This document shows positions 122-15,116 of a stretch of DNA of 15,116 nt, in pieces (position 1 is the stretch's first letter; every line of letters begins with the position of its first letter). The position numbers and the translations under genes are program-made. The notes beneath the pieces are model-generated. The model saw nothing but the letters and a program-made list of their open reading frames with translations, was not told the DNA's origin and made no database searches. The stretch comes from Candidatus Firestoneibacteriota bacterium (lineage in GTDB: Bacteria > Oederibacteriota > D2-FULL-39-29 > JBDRBU01): the NCBI GenBank assembly GCA_043822305.1, contig JBDRBU010000094.1:1-15116 (forward strand), in the 5' to 3' direction.

Positions 122-290
122 CCGTAATTGGTAACTCGTAAAGCGCCCCGTGGAATCTAAAAGATTCCCGGGACCAAAGTCCTTGAGATTGTTCATCAAT
201 CTCTAAGGGTAATTCGTAACTTTTTTTAATTACCAATTACCATTTACGGATTGCTGTTTACCATTTTCGTAATTAGTAATTACGAAAATG
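122..290. repeat. Structured region upstream of the tRNA: nested inverted repeats and degenerate GTAA/TTAC heptamer-like units
   Basis: 122-141 pairs with 230-249 (17/20). Hairpin CCCG-t-GGAATCT-aaa-AGATTCC-CGGG at 147-172. Hairpin CCTT-GAGATTG-ttcat-CAATCTC-t-AAGG at 181-208. Perfect palindrome CATTTTCGTAATTA-g-TAATTACGAAAATG at 262-290. Confidence 0.75.
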
Positions 291-362
291 CCGAGATAGC
301 TCAGTTGGTAGAGCAGGGCATTCGTAATGCCAACTGAAGAAATTTTTAATCCTTTTGCGGCA
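290..362 (+). pseudogene. tRNA-Thr(CGT) with intact 5' half and degenerate 3' half; probable integration (attL-like) site
   Basis: GCCGAGA-TA-GCTC-AGTTGGTA-GAGC-A-GGGCA-TTCGTAA-TGCC gives a canonical acceptor 5' strand, D-arm and anticodon arm (CGT). The T-arm GGTTCRA is absent (AAATTTTTAA instead). TTGCGGC-A at 355-362 is still in register to pair 6/7 with the acceptor 5' strand. Confidence 0.85.
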
Positions 363-9794: not shown

Positions 9795-11103
9795 ATGTAA
9801 GCTGATTCGAAATCAGTTAAAGTATAAAAAATTATATCCGGCATATCTTAGAATGCTATATACTTTAAACAGGGAATATAGAGTAAAGAAAGAACATTCG
9901 TTTTCTGATTTAGTAAACTTTAAAACAAATAAAGAAATTCCTAGACACAATTGGTTTTTTTATAAACAGGGCTATTCTGAGAAGTTAGTCAGTGAACTAC
10001 TCCTTAAAGAAAAACCTCCCAAGACTCGCTATGTATTAGATCCTTTTACAGGAGTCGGAACAACTAATCTTGTTGCAAAAAGTTTAGGATATAGAAGTAT
10101 AGGATTGGATATTAATCCTGTAGCTACCTTTGCAGCAAAAGTAAAAACTACTACATTTTCAAAACAAGAGATCAATAAAATAAATACTATGATTAAATTA
10201 TTTTCACCTACAAAAAAGAGTCAGATTATACCTATTTCCCCCTTACTTGAAAGGTCTTTTTCTAAGATTGCCTTTAATAAATTAATGCATATAAAGAGGT
10301 TTTTTGAGTCAATAAAAGATAAAAAAATAGCCTCTTTTTTTAAATTGGCATATCTTTCTATTATCGAAGATTGTTCTAATAGAATAAAAGATGGTAACGG
10401 ACTTAAGATTGCTATGAATAAGAGGAAAATACGAGATATTTACAGCTTCTATATTAATAAATGCAAGGTAATGGTTAATGACATTTATAGATTAAATTCT
10501 GGTAAAAAACCCATAATAATCAACGGTTCTATATTACTAAAAGAACATTTTGATAAGATAAAAGATAAAAAAGTAGGTATTGTTATTTTTTCTCCACCTT
10601 ATCTTAACTGTTTTGATTATTGTGAAGTATATAAACTTGAATTATGGATGGGGGGGTTTGTTAATAATTATGAAGATTTTAAGAAATATCGGACAATGGC
10701 AGTGAGGTCCCATGTTAATTCAGAATTTAATCATTGTATACAAAATCCTAATGCTAAAGTTAAATTAATCTCAGAAACAATATCTTGTTTCAACATTTGG
10801 AATAAAAATATTCCTGATATGATAGAAGGATACTTTGACGACATGACCAAAATGTTTAAGAAATTACACTTTCTTATGGTAAAAGGAGGTAAGTGCTTTA
10901 TAGTTATTGCTAACTCGGGATATAAGGGTGTATTAGTGCCAACTGATTTGTTGCTCGCAGATATTGCTAAAATGAATGGTTTTAAAGTTGCCAGTGTTAT
11001 ATATGCACGAAAAATTCGAGCTTCATCTCAACAAATGAATGAGCTACATAATACCTATAAGAATCTAATCAGGGAAAGCATAGTTGTCTTGGAGAAAAAA
11101 TGA
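9778..11103 (+). CDS. Amino-DNA methyltransferase, SPPY type (probably N4-cytosine)
   Basis: 'HNWFFYKQGYS', motif I 'LDPFTGVGTT', motif IV 'FSPPY', C-terminal 'RESIVVL'. ATG 9778 preferred over TTG 9742. Confidence 0.88.
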   Translation: MTRKSECKLIRNQLKYKKLYPAYLRMLYTLNREYRVKKEHSFSDLVNFKTNKEIPRHNWFFYKQGYSEKLVSELLLKEKPPKTRYVLDPFTGVGTTNLVAKSLGYRSIGLDINPVATFAAKVKTTTFSKQEINKINTMIKLFSPTKKSQIIPISPLLERSFSKIAFNKLMHIKRFFESIKDKKIASFFKLAYLSIIEDCSNRIKDGNGLKIAMNKRKIRDIYSFYINKCKVMVNDIYRLNSGKKPIIINGSILLKEHFDKIKDKKVGIVIFSPPYLNCFDYCEVYKLELWMGGFVNNYEDFKKYRTMAVRSHVNSEFNHCIQNPNAKVKLISETISCFNIWNKNIPDMIEGYFDDMTKMFKKLHFLMVKGGKCFIVIANSGYKGVLVPTDLLLADIAKMNGFKVASVIYARKIRASSQQMNELHNTYKNLIRESIVVLEKK

Positions 11104-13970
11104 AATTTCATCCATTACTAAAATCTAAGATAAAGAGTTGGAATGAACTAGAGAAACATATAGAACAACTGCCAAACACAAAAGAAATGGGAAATGTTTT
11201 TGAGCAGTTTGTATATGTCTATTTTCTTATCAAGCACAACTTATATCAAATAGCTGAGCACTATATGGAGAAAGATATTCCCTTGGAATATAGGAGAAGG
11301 TTTAATTTTGAAAGATATGATTGCGGAGTAGATGGTTTAATTATATTTAAAAATGGCAAAAGCGCCGCTTATCAAGCAAAATTTAGAAGTGATAGAGTGC
11401 AACCTTCCTATGCCGAATTAACAAAGTTTTGGGCTGAAGCAAAATCAACTGATTACAATTATACGGTAGCAAATTGTTATTACCTTTCTAGACTTTGCGC
11501 GAAACAACCGAAGCATCTGAGTATTTTGGTTGATGAGTTTGAAAATTTAGGTTCAGAATTTTTTAATGAATTTTATCTATGCATTAATGCAGAAAAACCA
11601 AAGCGTCAATTATATGCTCCTGATAAATTCCAGCAAAGAATGATTGGTAATGTGTTGAAGGGCTTCACAAAATATAATAGAGGGAAATTGATTGCCGCTT
11701 GTGGTACTGGCAAAACTTTAACAGCTTTATGGATTTCTGAACTTATGAAGACTCAGAAGGTTCTTTTTTTAGCACCGAGTTTAGCTTTAATAAAACAGAC
11801 ACTAGAATCATGGACAGAGCAAGCCAGTAGAGATTTTTCTTATTTGTGTGTATGTAGTGATAAAACGGTTTCTGACGAAATAGACAGTGGAGACATTAAG
11901 CTATCTGATTTTAATGTCCCGGTTACAACTTCCCCTAATGATATTTGTAAGTATTTATCGCAAAAATCAGAAGAGAAAAAAATAATTTTTTCTACTTATC
12001 AATCACTAGATGTCTTATCTGAAAGCATAAATAAATTGGTTGGATTCACATTTGATTTAATAGTATTTGATGAAGCACATAGGACTGCCGGCACAAAAGA
12101 TTCCTCTTTGTTCTCGTTAGCTCTTTATGACCAAAATATCCCATCAAAAAAGAGGCTTTTTATGACTGCAACTGAGAGATTAATTAGGCCATGGATTCTG
12201 AAAAAAGCGAAAGAGTTTAATAGAGTTGTTTTTTCAATGGACAATCCAGAACTATACGGTCCTGTTTTTGATAGATTTAATTTCGGCGAAGCTATCCAAA
12301 ACAAAATTATTTCTGATTACAGGATTATTGTTGCAGGAGTTAAAGCAAAAGAGGTATATGGTTGGATTAAAAGTAATAAATTGCTGGTTCATACTGAGAG
12401 TGGTTCTAAAGAATATTTCACATATGCTCAAAATATATTTCGACAGATTATGTTAATCAAGTCAATGCGTAATTTTAAAATGAAAAAATGTATAACCTTC
12501 CATTCTAATATTAAAAATGCAGTTTCATTTATTCGAGGAGTGAGTTCAGAAGATACTAATTTAAGGCAAGTGTTTAGTAGGCTTTGGCCAGAGTTATACG
12601 GAAAGGATTTATATCTAGATCATGTTAACGGCACAATGAGCGCAGGAGACAGAAAAGAGCGCCTAGATATTTTTAGGGATTCTAAATTTGGTGTAATTTC
12701 TAATGCAAGATGTTTAACCGAAGGAGTAGATGTTCCAATTATTGATAGTGTTTATTTTGTCAATCCAAGGCATTCTTTGATTGATATTGTCCAAGCCTGT
12801 GGAAGGGCTCTAAGAAAACCAAGAGATAAACATGATAAATTAGCATATTTCATCGTGCCTATTTTGATACCAGATATAGATGAAAAAGTGGACATTATTA
12901 ATGAAGTTGATTTTGAAATGCTACATGATTTGATACAGTCATTAAGAGACCAGGATCAACGACTTTCAGAGTGGATAGATAAAATTAATCTTAGTGCCTC
13001 TCAAGGTAAAACATATAGATTTTCTGAGGGGTCAGATAGTCCAATAATTCTTAATTTACCTGCTGAGTTTAATGTGAAAGATTTTGAAAAGAAATTATAC
13101 CTGAGGATTGCAGAGGTAAACAGAAATCCAACGCACTTTGACTACAAAACTAGGAAGTATGGTAAAACCGAGAGAAAAAGTGAGTATAAGAGAATATTCA
13201 AAACCCTTGGGGATTATTCAGTTGAATCTTATAAGAATAACTTGGTTATGCCCACCATAAGGAAATTTCAATCTAAAGACCAGACATTATCTACTGCAAA
13301 ACTTAAAATTAATCATAATAATATATCTCACACTGAGCGATTGGGTTTAATAATTAAGGAGAAAACTGGATATAAGTTATCTCCTTTAGGAATTCAGCTT
13401 TTTGAGGATAAAATTAATTTTGAATTATTATTTAAACAACAAATGTTAAGATATTTCTCATCTGATAAGCAAGGAGGGCGTATTTTATTCCCATACAGAG
13501 CTTGCTTAAAGATATTATTAGAAGCCAAATCAATTAATTTCATTGAATTCGCTTTCGGCTTATATTCATTAATAGATTCATCAGAAGAATCAATTATCGC
13601 AGGGGCAGAAGACACAAAGTTTCTGAGAGAAAAATATCCCAATTTGGAAATTTTAAGTGAAACGAATAAACATAAAGTTTTAAAAGAATTGAATAAATAT
13701 TTTGGGACAAACTTTTCAGTAACAGACATCTGGGCTAAAAAAACAACAATTAATAATCAATATATCTATTTTAGAAATCATCTTTCTTTATTCAATGATT
13801 TTATTGTTATAGATGAAAAAAACAGAACTATGACTCTCATCAAAGGCAAAGAAAAAGCACTCAAAGAATTATTATTAAGAGACTCTTTGCTTGAATATGA
13901 AAAAGACGAGACTATCCTAAAAAAGAAATATATTCAAAAACTCATAATATTCATGCTTTTTTCTTTATAA
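11100..13970 (+). CDS. Mrr-like PD-(D/E)xK nuclease fused to an SF2 (DEAH) helicase and a C-terminal putative DNA-recognition domain; restriction enzyme
   Basis: 'GNVFE...DCGVDG...YQAK' nuclease; Walker A 'ACGTGKT', 'FDEAH', 'MTAT', 'LTEGVDVP', 'IVQACGRALR'; about 270 additional C-terminal residues. ATGA overlap with the upstream MTase. Confidence 0.87.
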   Translation: MKFHPLLKSKIKSWNELEKHIEQLPNTKEMGNVFEQFVYVYFLIKHNLYQIAEHYMEKDIPLEYRRRFNFERYDCGVDGLIIFKNGKSAAYQAKFRSDRVQPSYAELTKFWAEAKSTDYNYTVANCYYLSRLCAKQPKHLSILVDEFENLGSEFFNEFYLCINAEKPKRQLYAPDKFQQRMIGNVLKGFTKYNRGKLIAACGTGKTLTALWISELMKTQKVLFLAPSLALIKQTLESWTEQASRDFSYLCVCSDKTVSDEIDSGDIKLSDFNVPVTTSPNDICKYLSQKSEEKKIIFSTYQSLDVLSESINKLVGFTFDLIVFDEAHRTAGTKDSSLFSLALYDQNIPSKKRLFMTATERLIRPWILKKAKEFNRVVFSMDNPELYGPVFDRFNFGEAIQNKIISDYRIIVAGVKAKEVYGWIKSNKLLVHTESGSKEYFTYAQNIFRQIMLIKSMRNFKMKKCITFHSNIKNAVSFIRGVSSEDTNLRQVFSRLWPELYGKDLYLDHVNGTMSAGDRKERLDIFRDSKFGVISNARCLTEGVDVPIIDSVYFVNPRHSLIDIVQACGRALRKPRDKHDKLAYFIVPILIPDIDEKVDIINEVDFEMLHDLIQSLRDQDQRLSEWIDKINLSASQGKTYRFSEGSDSPIILNLPAEFNVKDFEKKLYLRIAEVNRNPTHFDYKTRKYGKTERKSEYKRIFKTLGDYSVESYKNNLVMPTIRKFQSKDQTLSTAKLKINHNNISHTERLGLIIKEKTGYKLSPLGIQLFEDKINFELLFKQQMLRYFSSDKQGGRILFPYRACLKILLEAKSINFIEFAFGLYSLIDSSEESIIAGAEDTKFLREKYPNLEILSETNKHKVLKELNKYFGTNFSVTDIWAKKTTINNQYIYFRNHLSLFNDFIVIDEKNRTMTLIKGKEKALKELLLRDSLLEYEKDETILKKKYIQKLIIFMLFSL

Positions 13971-14010
13971 ACTTCATAAATAAATTTTTATATATTTTAT
14001 TAACCTGATA

Positions 14011-14046
14011 AAAAAGTTCACTTTACATAGGAAGTGCGAACTTTTT
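14011..14046 (+). terminator. Imperfect hairpin with A- and T-tracts after the R-M operon; coincides with the left recombination-like site
   Basis: AAAAAGTTC-ACTT-tacatagg-AAGT-gc-GAACTTTTT, 40 bp after the stop at 13970. Confidence 0.45.
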
Positions 14047-14258
14047 CATTTTATCCTCTAATTCCTATCTGATTCATTTCACGTCGTCAAATCTATTCTT
14101 CTAATATTTCTCTATTTCTACAACCTACTAATTTATTCTCTCCGTTTTCCTTCTATTTCTCATTTCCAGAATCCTACTCTATAAACCGGCGTCGGAAAGC
14201 TTAAATACATCTATTTCGCCTTTATTATAGCAGTTCACCTTTCCTATGAATGATGAAC
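14016..14258. mobile_element. Candidate invertible DNA segment bounded by inverted 26-bp sites
   Basis: GTTCACTTTA-CATAGG-AAGTGCGAAC (14016-14041) and GTTCACCTTT-CCTATG-AATGATGAAC (14233-14258) are 19/26 identical as reverse complements, with an identical centred core. The second site ends 7 bp before the recombinase ATG. Confidence 0.62.
14224..14232 (-). promoter_or_regulatory. Extended -10 element TGcTATAAT on the minus strand inside the candidate invertible segment
   Basis: + strand ATTATAGCA is the reverse complement of TGCTATAAT. The -35 position currently reads CATTCA (poor). Confidence 0.55.
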
Positions 14259-14265
14259 ACACAAA

Positions 14266-14880
14266 ATGACATTTACGTGGATATTAGACGAAAGTAAGTA
14301 CCTAAAAACAGAAGAAGTGAGAAAGCTCATGGATACCTGCCGGGAATTAATGCGAAAACACAGAAGTTATCTGGCAGTCAGGAATTGTTTCATGGTTGAA
14401 CTCGGCTTGTTTACAGGATTGAGAGTGAAGGAAATGGCTAACCTGAATTGCGGTGATCTTTTAATCGGAAATGAGCAATCCACATTAATAGTAAGCAAAG
14501 GCAAGGGAGACAAGAAAAGAATTGTAAAACTCAACAGTGAATTTAGAAGAAAATGCTTAAAGTTTCTCAAATACAAAGAAAAAATAAATCAAAGTATAAG
14601 TGAAGATTCTCCACTGTTCTGTTCTCTTTCAGGCAGAAGATTAACTAGAAGAGCATTGCAAAAATCATTCAAGAAATGCATGGAAATCGCAGAATTGTCT
14701 GAGCATTACGGAATTCACAGCTTAAGGCATACATATGCCTCTCATTTATACAAGGCAAGCAATCACAATCTCAGATTAGTGCAGGAGCAATTAGGACATT
14801 CTTCTATAAAAACGACAGAAGTTTATGCAAATCTGATGGCAACAGACGTGAATGAAGCGCTTGAAAATCTTTACAAGTAA
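14266..14880 (+). CDS. Compact tyrosine recombinase (catalytic domain only; XerC/D-like motifs, FimB/FimE-like size)
   Basis: Catalytic set R (TGLRVKE), K (KGKGDKKR), HxxR (HSLRH), H (LGHSS), Y (TTEVY). 204 aa, with no N-terminal arm- or core-binding domain. No SD upstream. Confidence 0.94.
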   Translation: MTFTWILDESKYLKTEEVRKLMDTCRELMRKHRSYLAVRNCFMVELGLFTGLRVKEMANLNCGDLLIGNEQSTLIVSKGKGDKKRIVKLNSEFRRKCLKFLKYKEKINQSISEDSPLFCSLSGRRLTRRALQKSFKKCMEIAELSEHYGIHSLRHTYASHLYKASNHNLRLVQEQLGHSSIKTTEVYANLMATDVNEALENLYK

Positions 14881-14891
14881 GGAGGTGAGCG

Positions 14892-15098
14892 ATGTTTGAG
14901 TATTGTGGCTGGTGTAACAAACATATCAATCTTCTGAATTTTCAGAAAGTTGCATTAAGAATAAACGGAAATATTGAAAAGAAAAGATTATGGTTCTGCG
15001 CGCCAAGATGTCTTCTTGAATTTAACAGGCTTTATGAAGGAAGTAATTTCAACATGCGACTTGACGTTCCAAAAGCATTGAAAGCAGGTAAATGGTGA
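14892..15098 (+). CDS. Small putative treble-clef Zn-finger protein (TRASH/YHS-like)
   Basis: CGWC...WFCAPRC pattern; strong SD AGGAGGT at 14880-14886. Another SD (AGGAGG) at the window end implies the operon continues. Confidence 0.7.
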   Translation: MFEYCGWCNKHINLLNFQKVALRINGNIEKKRLWFCAPRCLLEFNRLYEGSNFNMRLDVPKALKAGKW

Positions 15099-15116
15099 AA
15101 ATAAAAAAGGAGGGGA

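Follow-up and report, generated by a model that had tools for sequence, protein, structure and literature searches.

A putative self-controlling inverton with its recombinase gene directly downstream, and a short leader reading frame that inversion would complete

Genes at the locus and a probable mobile element

The window, by which we mean the whole stretch of 15,116 nt analyzed here, is an entire contig (C94) of a 2.15-Mb bacterial genome. It carries HicAB, several DNA methylase genes, and genes for an R.Pab1-type nuclease and a helicase, all on the plus strand; a helicase-type restriction gene occupies positions 11100-13970, downstream of the methylase genes. A gap of 296 bp separates these plus-strand genes from one encoding a tyrosine recombinase of 204 amino acids (14266-14880, plus strand), which consists of the catalytic domain only. 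The protein belongs to PF00589 (110 bits; cut-off, 27.1) and has the catalytic R-K-H-R-H/W-Y set; R53, K80, H151, R154, H178, and Y187 are invariant across 44 aligned recombinase sequences. It falls outside XerC, XerD, and XerA (119 to 124 bits against cut-offs of 220 to 335), its match to the Xer profiles starting at profile position 93-106 with the N-terminal core-binding domain absent, and outside FimB and FimE (32.9 and 29.1 bits against NCBIfam cut-offs of 221 and 222).

A perfect 9-nt Shine-Dalgarno (SD) sequence overlaps the recombinase stop codon and precedes a Cys-containing open reading frame (ORF) of 68 amino acids (14892-15098; 14878-15098 with the SD, plus strand), after which the start region of a further gene (15092-15116, plus strand) is cut by the contig end. 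The 68-aa product contains CxxC and CxxxC motifs, is nearly identical in the closest related locus, L001, and has no Pfam or NCBIfam match; it is possibly a small zinc-binding accessory protein. In L001 the counterpart of the gene at 15092 specifies a protein of 665 amino acids that begins like a signal peptide and contains PD40 repeats and a PPC domain.

L001, whose recombinase is 93% identical in protein sequence, matches the window at 14010-15114, while its left-hand genes differ. Further right it encodes a large protein whose start resembles a signal peptide, along with a DUF87/HerA ATPase, ThiF, and a ubiquitin-like protein; the block 3' of the switch operon (L001 9702-13647) comprises DUF87/HerA ATPase, DUF2958, ThiF, and ThiS/SAMP-like genes and is likely the body of a mobile element. 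One piece related to this block is present on contig C79 of genome G000. The recombinase was not detected in the 98 other genomes of the host's phylum (99 with the host) searched with this query, and its relatives carry the labels of many phyla. Because of the different left-hand genes in L001, this negative result, and the phylum range, we read the switch and recombinase as a mobile element. A phage origin was considered and rejected: a single-protein scan of viral contigs found no relative, and an alignment scan gave only distant matches (80 loci; best E value, 5e-20). There was no plasmid match at an E value of 1e-30. At the far left of the window (262-331), a near-perfect 29-bp palindrome is followed by an apparent 5' half of a tRNA-Thr(CGT), where ARAGORN calls no tRNA gene; the two may mark the left attachment site of an island.

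Paired sites, orientation, and predicted transcription

The recombinase gene is preceded by two recombination sites. The left site (14016-14041) is a 26-bp dyad with 10-bp arms flanking a 6-bp core at 14026-14031; the right site (14233-14258) has a core at 14243-14248 that is the reverse complement of the left core and ends in an ATG at 14246. Between the cores lie 211 bp, and the segment from core to core (14026-14248) is present in the pyrimidine-top orientation, predicted to be OFF. Relatives were compared in a set of 159 fetched loci by using a site matrix derived from 55 proximal seeds after the core columns had been set to zero; a pair consisted of a proximal site and a partner 100 to 400 bp upstream, both scoring at least 9 bits, and partners were sought upstream only. 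The 6-bp cores were exact reverse complements in 76 of 76 loci in which both sites were scored, as expected of an inverton, and likewise in two of two new family loci. When weaker proximal sites are counted there are 91 pairs with 47 different cores, duplicates included (78 pairs when made nonredundant), and the cores covary across the 47 distinct sequences. The recombinase gene lies directly 3' of the switch in all 91 pairs; this fixed linkage suggests that the adjacent recombinase catalyzes inversion. The strict dyad pattern occurs elsewhere in G000 at only two places, both unpaired.

Pyrimidine-top is the common state (84 of 91 pairs). Of the seven purine-top pairs, two have near-identical counterparts oriented the other way, support is weak for four, and the remaining one is ambiguous. 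Near-identical segments occur in opposite orientations in L007/L086 (90%) and L126/L079 (86%). A further case comes from the read runs, of which the comparison covers 4 of the 19 listed: record 4 of X2, a 1,730-bp contig from a relative of about 90% identity, aligns gap-free to 14026-14248 only, with 22 differences, and a nonaligning flank of 1,485 nt sits where the recombinase would be expected. Judged by its alignment coordinates alone, its end points appear to be those of an inverted allele; no joint is listed in the read-run contig alignments. Both orientations thus occur in nature among the relatives, and we have hardly any doubt that the inversion is real. The sites, their covariation, the two orientations, the layout, and the start architecture described below are read from sequence comparison.

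IHF sites are not enriched (39 of 78 against 34.9). Among 5-mers of the invertible segments, enrichment is strongest for CGTCG, seen in 28 of 78 segments where 6.0 were expected, and in the window near 14083-14090 and 14190-14196. In L012, L014, L033, L053, L095, L101, L106, L110, L113, and L148, the common state places an operator-like dyad (TAAC...GTTA around an inner GCTTT/AAAGC pair) about 25 to 45 nt inward of the right site.

Flipping the window in silico brings a TTTACA (14022-14027, plus strand) and a TATAAT with TG extension (14224-14229, minus strand) together across the left site with a 17-nt spacer, a predicted sigma-70 promoter of 11.1 bits in the junction scan, against a best score of 4.9 bits at the junctions of the present state. 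L001 is identical in these letters. Other junction promoters form on flipping in L084 (10.3 bits) and L111 (11.7), and L002 has an internal one (10.9); a strong junction promoter is found in only three nonredundant loci. A whole-segment scan, which missed the junction promoter of the window, gave no family-wide sigma-70 bias toward the flipped state (47 of 88; P = 0.12). As presently oriented, the left site yields a terminator-like hairpin with a T-run behind it (14010-14052, plus strand), a structure absent from the list of a simple terminator scan; on inversion the T-run moves away. The left site is followed by a run of at least six T's in 57 of 78 loci, against 8.5 expected and 12 of 78 when the loci are flipped. 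The downstream ORF is codirectional with the recombinase gene in 67 of 74 loci, and a hydrophobic N terminus is predicted for 43 of 59 downstream ORFs, compared with 12 of 64 on the left. Given the junction promoter, the left-site hairpin with its T-run, and the codirectional downstream ORFs, we consider it likely that the flipped state is the ON state in the window's clade, the promoter and terminator being predicted ones. Since flipping would assemble a sigma-70 promoter and weaken the terminator, the sequence immediately upstream of the recombinase gene would most likely be transcribed in the flipped state, within a 5' leader of about 209 nt. In RNA run X1, low-depth coverage was confined to parts of the recombinase gene and the next ORF, with the switch outside it.

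In the opposite polarity, the common orientation would be the expressing one, driven by a non-sigma-70 element such as the TTAAA motif that lies about 29 nt before an SD-less in-frame ATG, and the flipped orientation would be at rest. Many relatives have a motif of this type just within the right end of the segment in its common state; in the window it is at 14200-14207 (plus strand). An in-frame upstream ATG, mostly SD-less, is present in the common state in 22 of the 27 loci of the window's branch in which the site is in frame with the recombinase, against 5.6 expected, and its distances from the site differ by whole codons, which fits expression from the common state. Against this, the window, L001, and L002 lack the ATG, nine loci have strong sigma-70 promoters directed at the gene only once flipped, and the host is bacterial with no TBP match. 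We regard this polarity as improbable in its full form, although common-state expression can be compatible with a flipped ON state if it is the basal route from OFF to ON, and the common-state ATG may serve such basal expression. An archaeal TATA reading of the TTAAA motif was rejected: the host has no TBP match and six sigma-70 matches, and the relatives lie in bacterial chromosomes.

Reading frames ahead of the recombinase start

A sequence-only reading of this DNA had proposed that inversion also supplies the recombinase gene, which lacks an SD, with an SD-led leader ORF coupled to it by an ATGA overlap, forming a second, translational layer of the switch. The sequence it gave for the minus strand at 14058-14047 is correct: an SD and an ATG (14049-14047) lie there and, after inversion in silico, open a 14-codon ORF whose TGA at 14267-14269 overlaps the recombinase ATG, whichever of the nine crossover positions in the shared 8-mer is used. 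The flipped window therefore has the -1 stop/start overlap of a coupled leader, and ATGA overlap is the usual geometry of translational coupling. What inversion contributes is the SD and the seven upstream codons, whereas the last seven codons and the ATGA already exist in the present orientation, as an ORF that starts at the core ATG and ends over the recombinase start (14246-14269, plus strand) in either orientation. The flipped 5' leader also holds a second short ORF of eight codons (14051-14077, minus strand), also found in L001, the stop codon of which ends 1 nt before the leader ATG.

The recombinase ATG does lack an SD (best run, 2 nt; duplex energy, about 0 kcal/mol). The strong AGGAGG ascribed to the neighboring genes holds for two of nine other window genes checked (2444 and 14892), while three of the nine have no SD (3144, 4640, and 7004). 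Starts without an SD are common in the host, with runs of at most 3 nt at 164 of 380 unambiguous starts, and ATGA is its commonest start context (211 of 380). The worry that the spacing of the leader SD is too short proved unfounded: its GAGG lies 5 nt from the ATG, within the 4 to 7 nt of aligned spacing that is most frequent in the host (85 of 136 starts with a strong SD). This SD is only the 4-nt GAGG, and a run that long precedes 383 of 1,843 random ATGs (21%). When the 62 nt preceding the arm were shuffled 20,000 times, 25.5% of the shuffles contained an open in-frame ATG and 10% contained one led by an SD of at least 4 nt. The leader alone does not exceed chance.

Nor are its loading signals kept in relatives. 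L001 retains the leader ATG without the GAGG, so the close SD is lost; the deeper X2 allele and both X3 contigs have ATT in place of the ATG; L002 likewise has ATT and no upstream ATG, and on flipping it gains a 5-nt SD 11 nt before the core ATG; and L084 has no start codon in the leader frame. P0002 to P0005, which are 70 to 75% identical and make up four of the seven nearest proteins, begin with Met-Ala, so their recombinase start cannot overlap a TGA and an ATGA is excluded; these four and P0007 were judged from protein sequence. Searches for more DNA of the window's clade found none that was new. The frame and its ATGA are conserved in the window, L001, L002, L080, and L084, so conservation of the frame, which had been suggested as a check, is found in part: the combination of SD, start codon, and overlap expected of a coupled leader is not conserved.

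The frame itself appears to have a simpler origin. Many homologues are called with N-terminal extensions that represent the translated right site, with the core ATG in frame. In the window's clade the first conserved Trp lies 47 nt from the site, compared with 48 to 66 nt elsewhere, so that the same frame ends there in a TGA over the new ATG. Both trees (midpoint rooted, with soft support for the deeper branches) place the window's clade among the in-frame forms. The 7-codon ORF thus looks like a detached recombinase N terminus, as far as sequence comparison can tell, which would explain the frame without selection for coupling and would also provide a ready route for coupling. The window and L084 clades are separate in both trees, one of which is a quick search, and a single ATGA clade is not rejected (p-AU = 0.215).

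If the leader is incidental, inversion acts on transcription only, the recombinase starts without an SD, and the short ORF is an N-terminal relic to which a chance ATG on a purine-rich strand has been added. The 10 to 25% chance expectation, the loss of the ATG in the run alleles and of the SD in L001, the exclusion of an ATGA in P0002 to P0005, the 164 of 380 SD-less host starts, and the start-less frame of L084 all agree with this. It accounts poorly for the family-wide pattern of decoy starts described below and for one inverted-looking contig that appears, from depths of 79.8 in total and 53.5 for the variant, to keep the ATG. It also sits uneasily with the site frame, into which flipping brings an SD of at least 5 nt at 8 of 27 loci, against 3.0 in shuffles (2 of 400), a gain that gives modest support only, as the loci are related. 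In L002, L017, L029, and L031, flipping provides the core ATG with an SD of 5 to 7 nt, which realizes the idea of the sequence-only reading by another route. We consider an incidental leader rather unlikely, if a serious contender; that the leader measurably raises recombinase output is a tentative proposition, somewhat less doubtful. The leader is plausible as an unconserved local variant, recently gained or easily lost.

Across the family, direct initiation at the recombinase start is weak. Starts were classified automatically at 118 nonredundant loci (18 were dropped because the anchor Trp or 75 nt of upstream sequence was missing, and 24 as near duplicates), with SDs of at least 5 nt counted by hand; known slips are L034 and L120, which look like ATGA cases, L019, which is spurious, and L018, which is a tie. 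Only 4 of the 82 site-bearing loci have a direct SD of at least 5 nt (10 of their 14 direct-SD calls are 4-nt runs), 29 have none, and 39 show an ATG with an SD that is not part of the recombinase ORF. Among the 36 loci with no called site, 26 have a direct SD, of at least 5 nt in 23. Since 19 of these 26 belong to one clade, the contrast is confounded by descent and rests on few independent events, and degenerate sites are present at several of the "no site" loci.

For most relatives, the SD-led upstream ATG sits in DNA beyond the invertible segment and is independent of orientation. These decoy ATGs are positioned exactly 14 nt before the true start in 22 of 46 decoy loci; their ORFs end in ATGA in 17 cases, run past the recombinase start in 20, are called as stopping before it in 5, and lack an in-frame start within the noninverting DNA in 4. 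ATGA is no commoner at decoy loci (24 of 41) than in the host background (211 of 380). Such upstream ORFs might lower recombinase output, ribosomes at the SD-led ATG occluding the true start; no coupling by ATGA is possible for the 20 of 46 that run past the start, and the window itself has out-of-frame ATGs 13 and 16 nt upstream that open an ORF running past the start. The SD-led ORF of the window ends exactly at the ATGA, the usual coupling geometry, as do 17 of the 46 family cases, and we judge pure occlusion unlikely as the role of the upstream ORFs. More unlikely still is recoding, whereby ribosomes slipping by -1 on the A-run ahead of the TGA would fuse the leader to the recombinase and restore the basic N-terminal extension of the relatives. 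In the window, L001, L002, and L080, re-pairing of the P-site Lys codon in the -1 frame is possible, and L045, L142, and L150 have an SD-led ATG and an A-run with no in-frame start codon; there is no canonical slippery heptamer, the A-run is absent from L084 and from decoy loci such as L004, L027, L034, and L093, and the three start-less loci may be damaged genes or may have frameshift- or slippage-dependent expression.

Our preferred reading is that recombinase translation has been selected to be weak, which we hold to be fairly probable; a weak start probably keeps the switch from flipping straight back. Of the proposed second translational layer, weak and indirect recombinase initiation stands as a trait of the family, but the SD-led 14-codon leader is not conserved.

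A model of the switch and its relation to known systems

We consider it reasonably probable, with slightly less assurance than for the weak start, that the locus, part of a mobile element, is a self-controlling inverton that serves secreted-protein genes and in which translation of the recombinase is throttled. The polarity, the terminator and promoter functions, catalysis, ORF translation, and feedback logic of the following model are what we infer from the DNA. The recombinase would bind the two 26-bp dyad sites and flip about 220 bp upstream of its gene, the first of an operon that also includes genes for presumed secreted or surface proteins. In the common state the left site would act as a terminator and no strong promoter would face the gene (OFF); in the flipped state the T-run would be gone and, in the window, a near-consensus sigma-70 promoter would span the left junction (ON). 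ON would transcribe recombinase and cargo, and the recombinase would return the switch to OFF, a negative feedback. As ON would also express the enzyme that turns the switch OFF, recombinase translation would be kept low; poor initiation beside the perfect SD of the next gene would let cargo be made first. In the window's clade, the SD-less recombinase start may be reached at least partly by reinitiation from the short ORF through the right site, probably the N-terminal frame of the relatives cut loose by a frame-shifting shortening, and the leader SD and ATG may be one local way of loading that frame in the ON state. The 84-to-7 orientation bias is consistent with a short-lived ON state, although an assembly consensus would also favor the majority state.

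It is possible, though we put it forward only tentatively, that these loci belong to a widespread and apparently undescribed class of self-timing switches carried by uncultured environmental bacteria, whose recombination site would serve at once as a terminator, as half of a promoter, and as the recombinase start region. Flipping would then rewrite the enzyme's translation start, decoy starts 10 to 17 nt upstream would set the duration of ON, and the leader would be the window's version of the timer. The recombinase gene is the first gene behind its own switch in hosts labeled with many phyla, a layout that needs a brake, and several independent-looking brakes are found at the recombinase translation start across the sequences. 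If confirmed, this would be a naturally occurring switch with negative feedback that takes up less than 1 kb and comes with dozens of natural core variants, and it would open to testing how a cell determines the time spent in a phase-variable state. On its own the leader is of less consequence, a tuning variant at the strain level.

Recombination is known to assemble a promoter or alter the coding end of a recombinase gene, as in IS-circle junction promoters and att sites inside integrase genes; those are products of circularization or integration, whereas here the event is a reversible inversion. In KplE1 intS autoregulation, as described in the portion of PMC2951348 available to us, the recombination region likewise overlaps the recombinase's own expression signals, but the setting is integration, excision, and promoter repression, with no inversion or translational element in that portion. 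The Escherichia coli fimS switch, in the accessible parts of PMC9993118 and PMC5386303, resembles the one proposed here in that small tyrosine recombinases (FimB/FimE) adjoin a short invertible switch for surface structures, and orientation feeds back on recombinase output through a terminator; there fimE lies upstream of the switch and is affected at its 3' end, whereas here the switch is upstream of the recombinase gene, the site overlaps the start region, and a promoter would be assembled across the junction. The Clostridioides difficile cwpV switch (RecV) shares an inversion of about 200 bp in the 5' leader and, in the excerpts of PMC2784873 at hand, an intrinsic terminator proposed for OFF, as predicted here; its segment has no promoter or ORF, whereas here the predicted terminator is the recombination site and the first downstream gene is the recombinase. 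Among gut invertons, tyrosine recombinases also lie beside invertible elements near surface genes (hCom2 groups 139/35 and 126/103), but in the available sections of PMC11892184 nearby invertases are generally not regulatable by them, group 145 being a possible exception, whereas here the recombinase gene is directly downstream in every pair, with partners sought upstream only. The kind of system is therefore known, a fimS- or cwpV-like inverton, and the layout with the recombinase downstream of its own switch is a new variant. A literature search, run on partial texts and outside most subscription papers and supplements, found no publication on this recombinase family, its layout, or decoy starts of invertases; a term search of the accessible text of PMC11602134, PMC11868660, and PMC2845655 returned no relevant passage, and members of the family could be present in the inverton tables that accompany PMC11602134 and PMC11892184.

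Two variant arrangements were seen among the relatives. A sister clade (L047, L067, L068, L072, L077, L128, L132, L141, L153, and L157) has no dyad site and instead carries a different upstream motif (GGTATAAGAA or close to it), palindromic in L068, L072, and L157, together with a strong direct SD. L040, L042, and L255 have a single site that abuts the recombinase gene out of frame, with its core in the direction of a left site and no nearby partner; the genome behind L040 holds three copies, and the single-site loci may be the product of recombination between copies.
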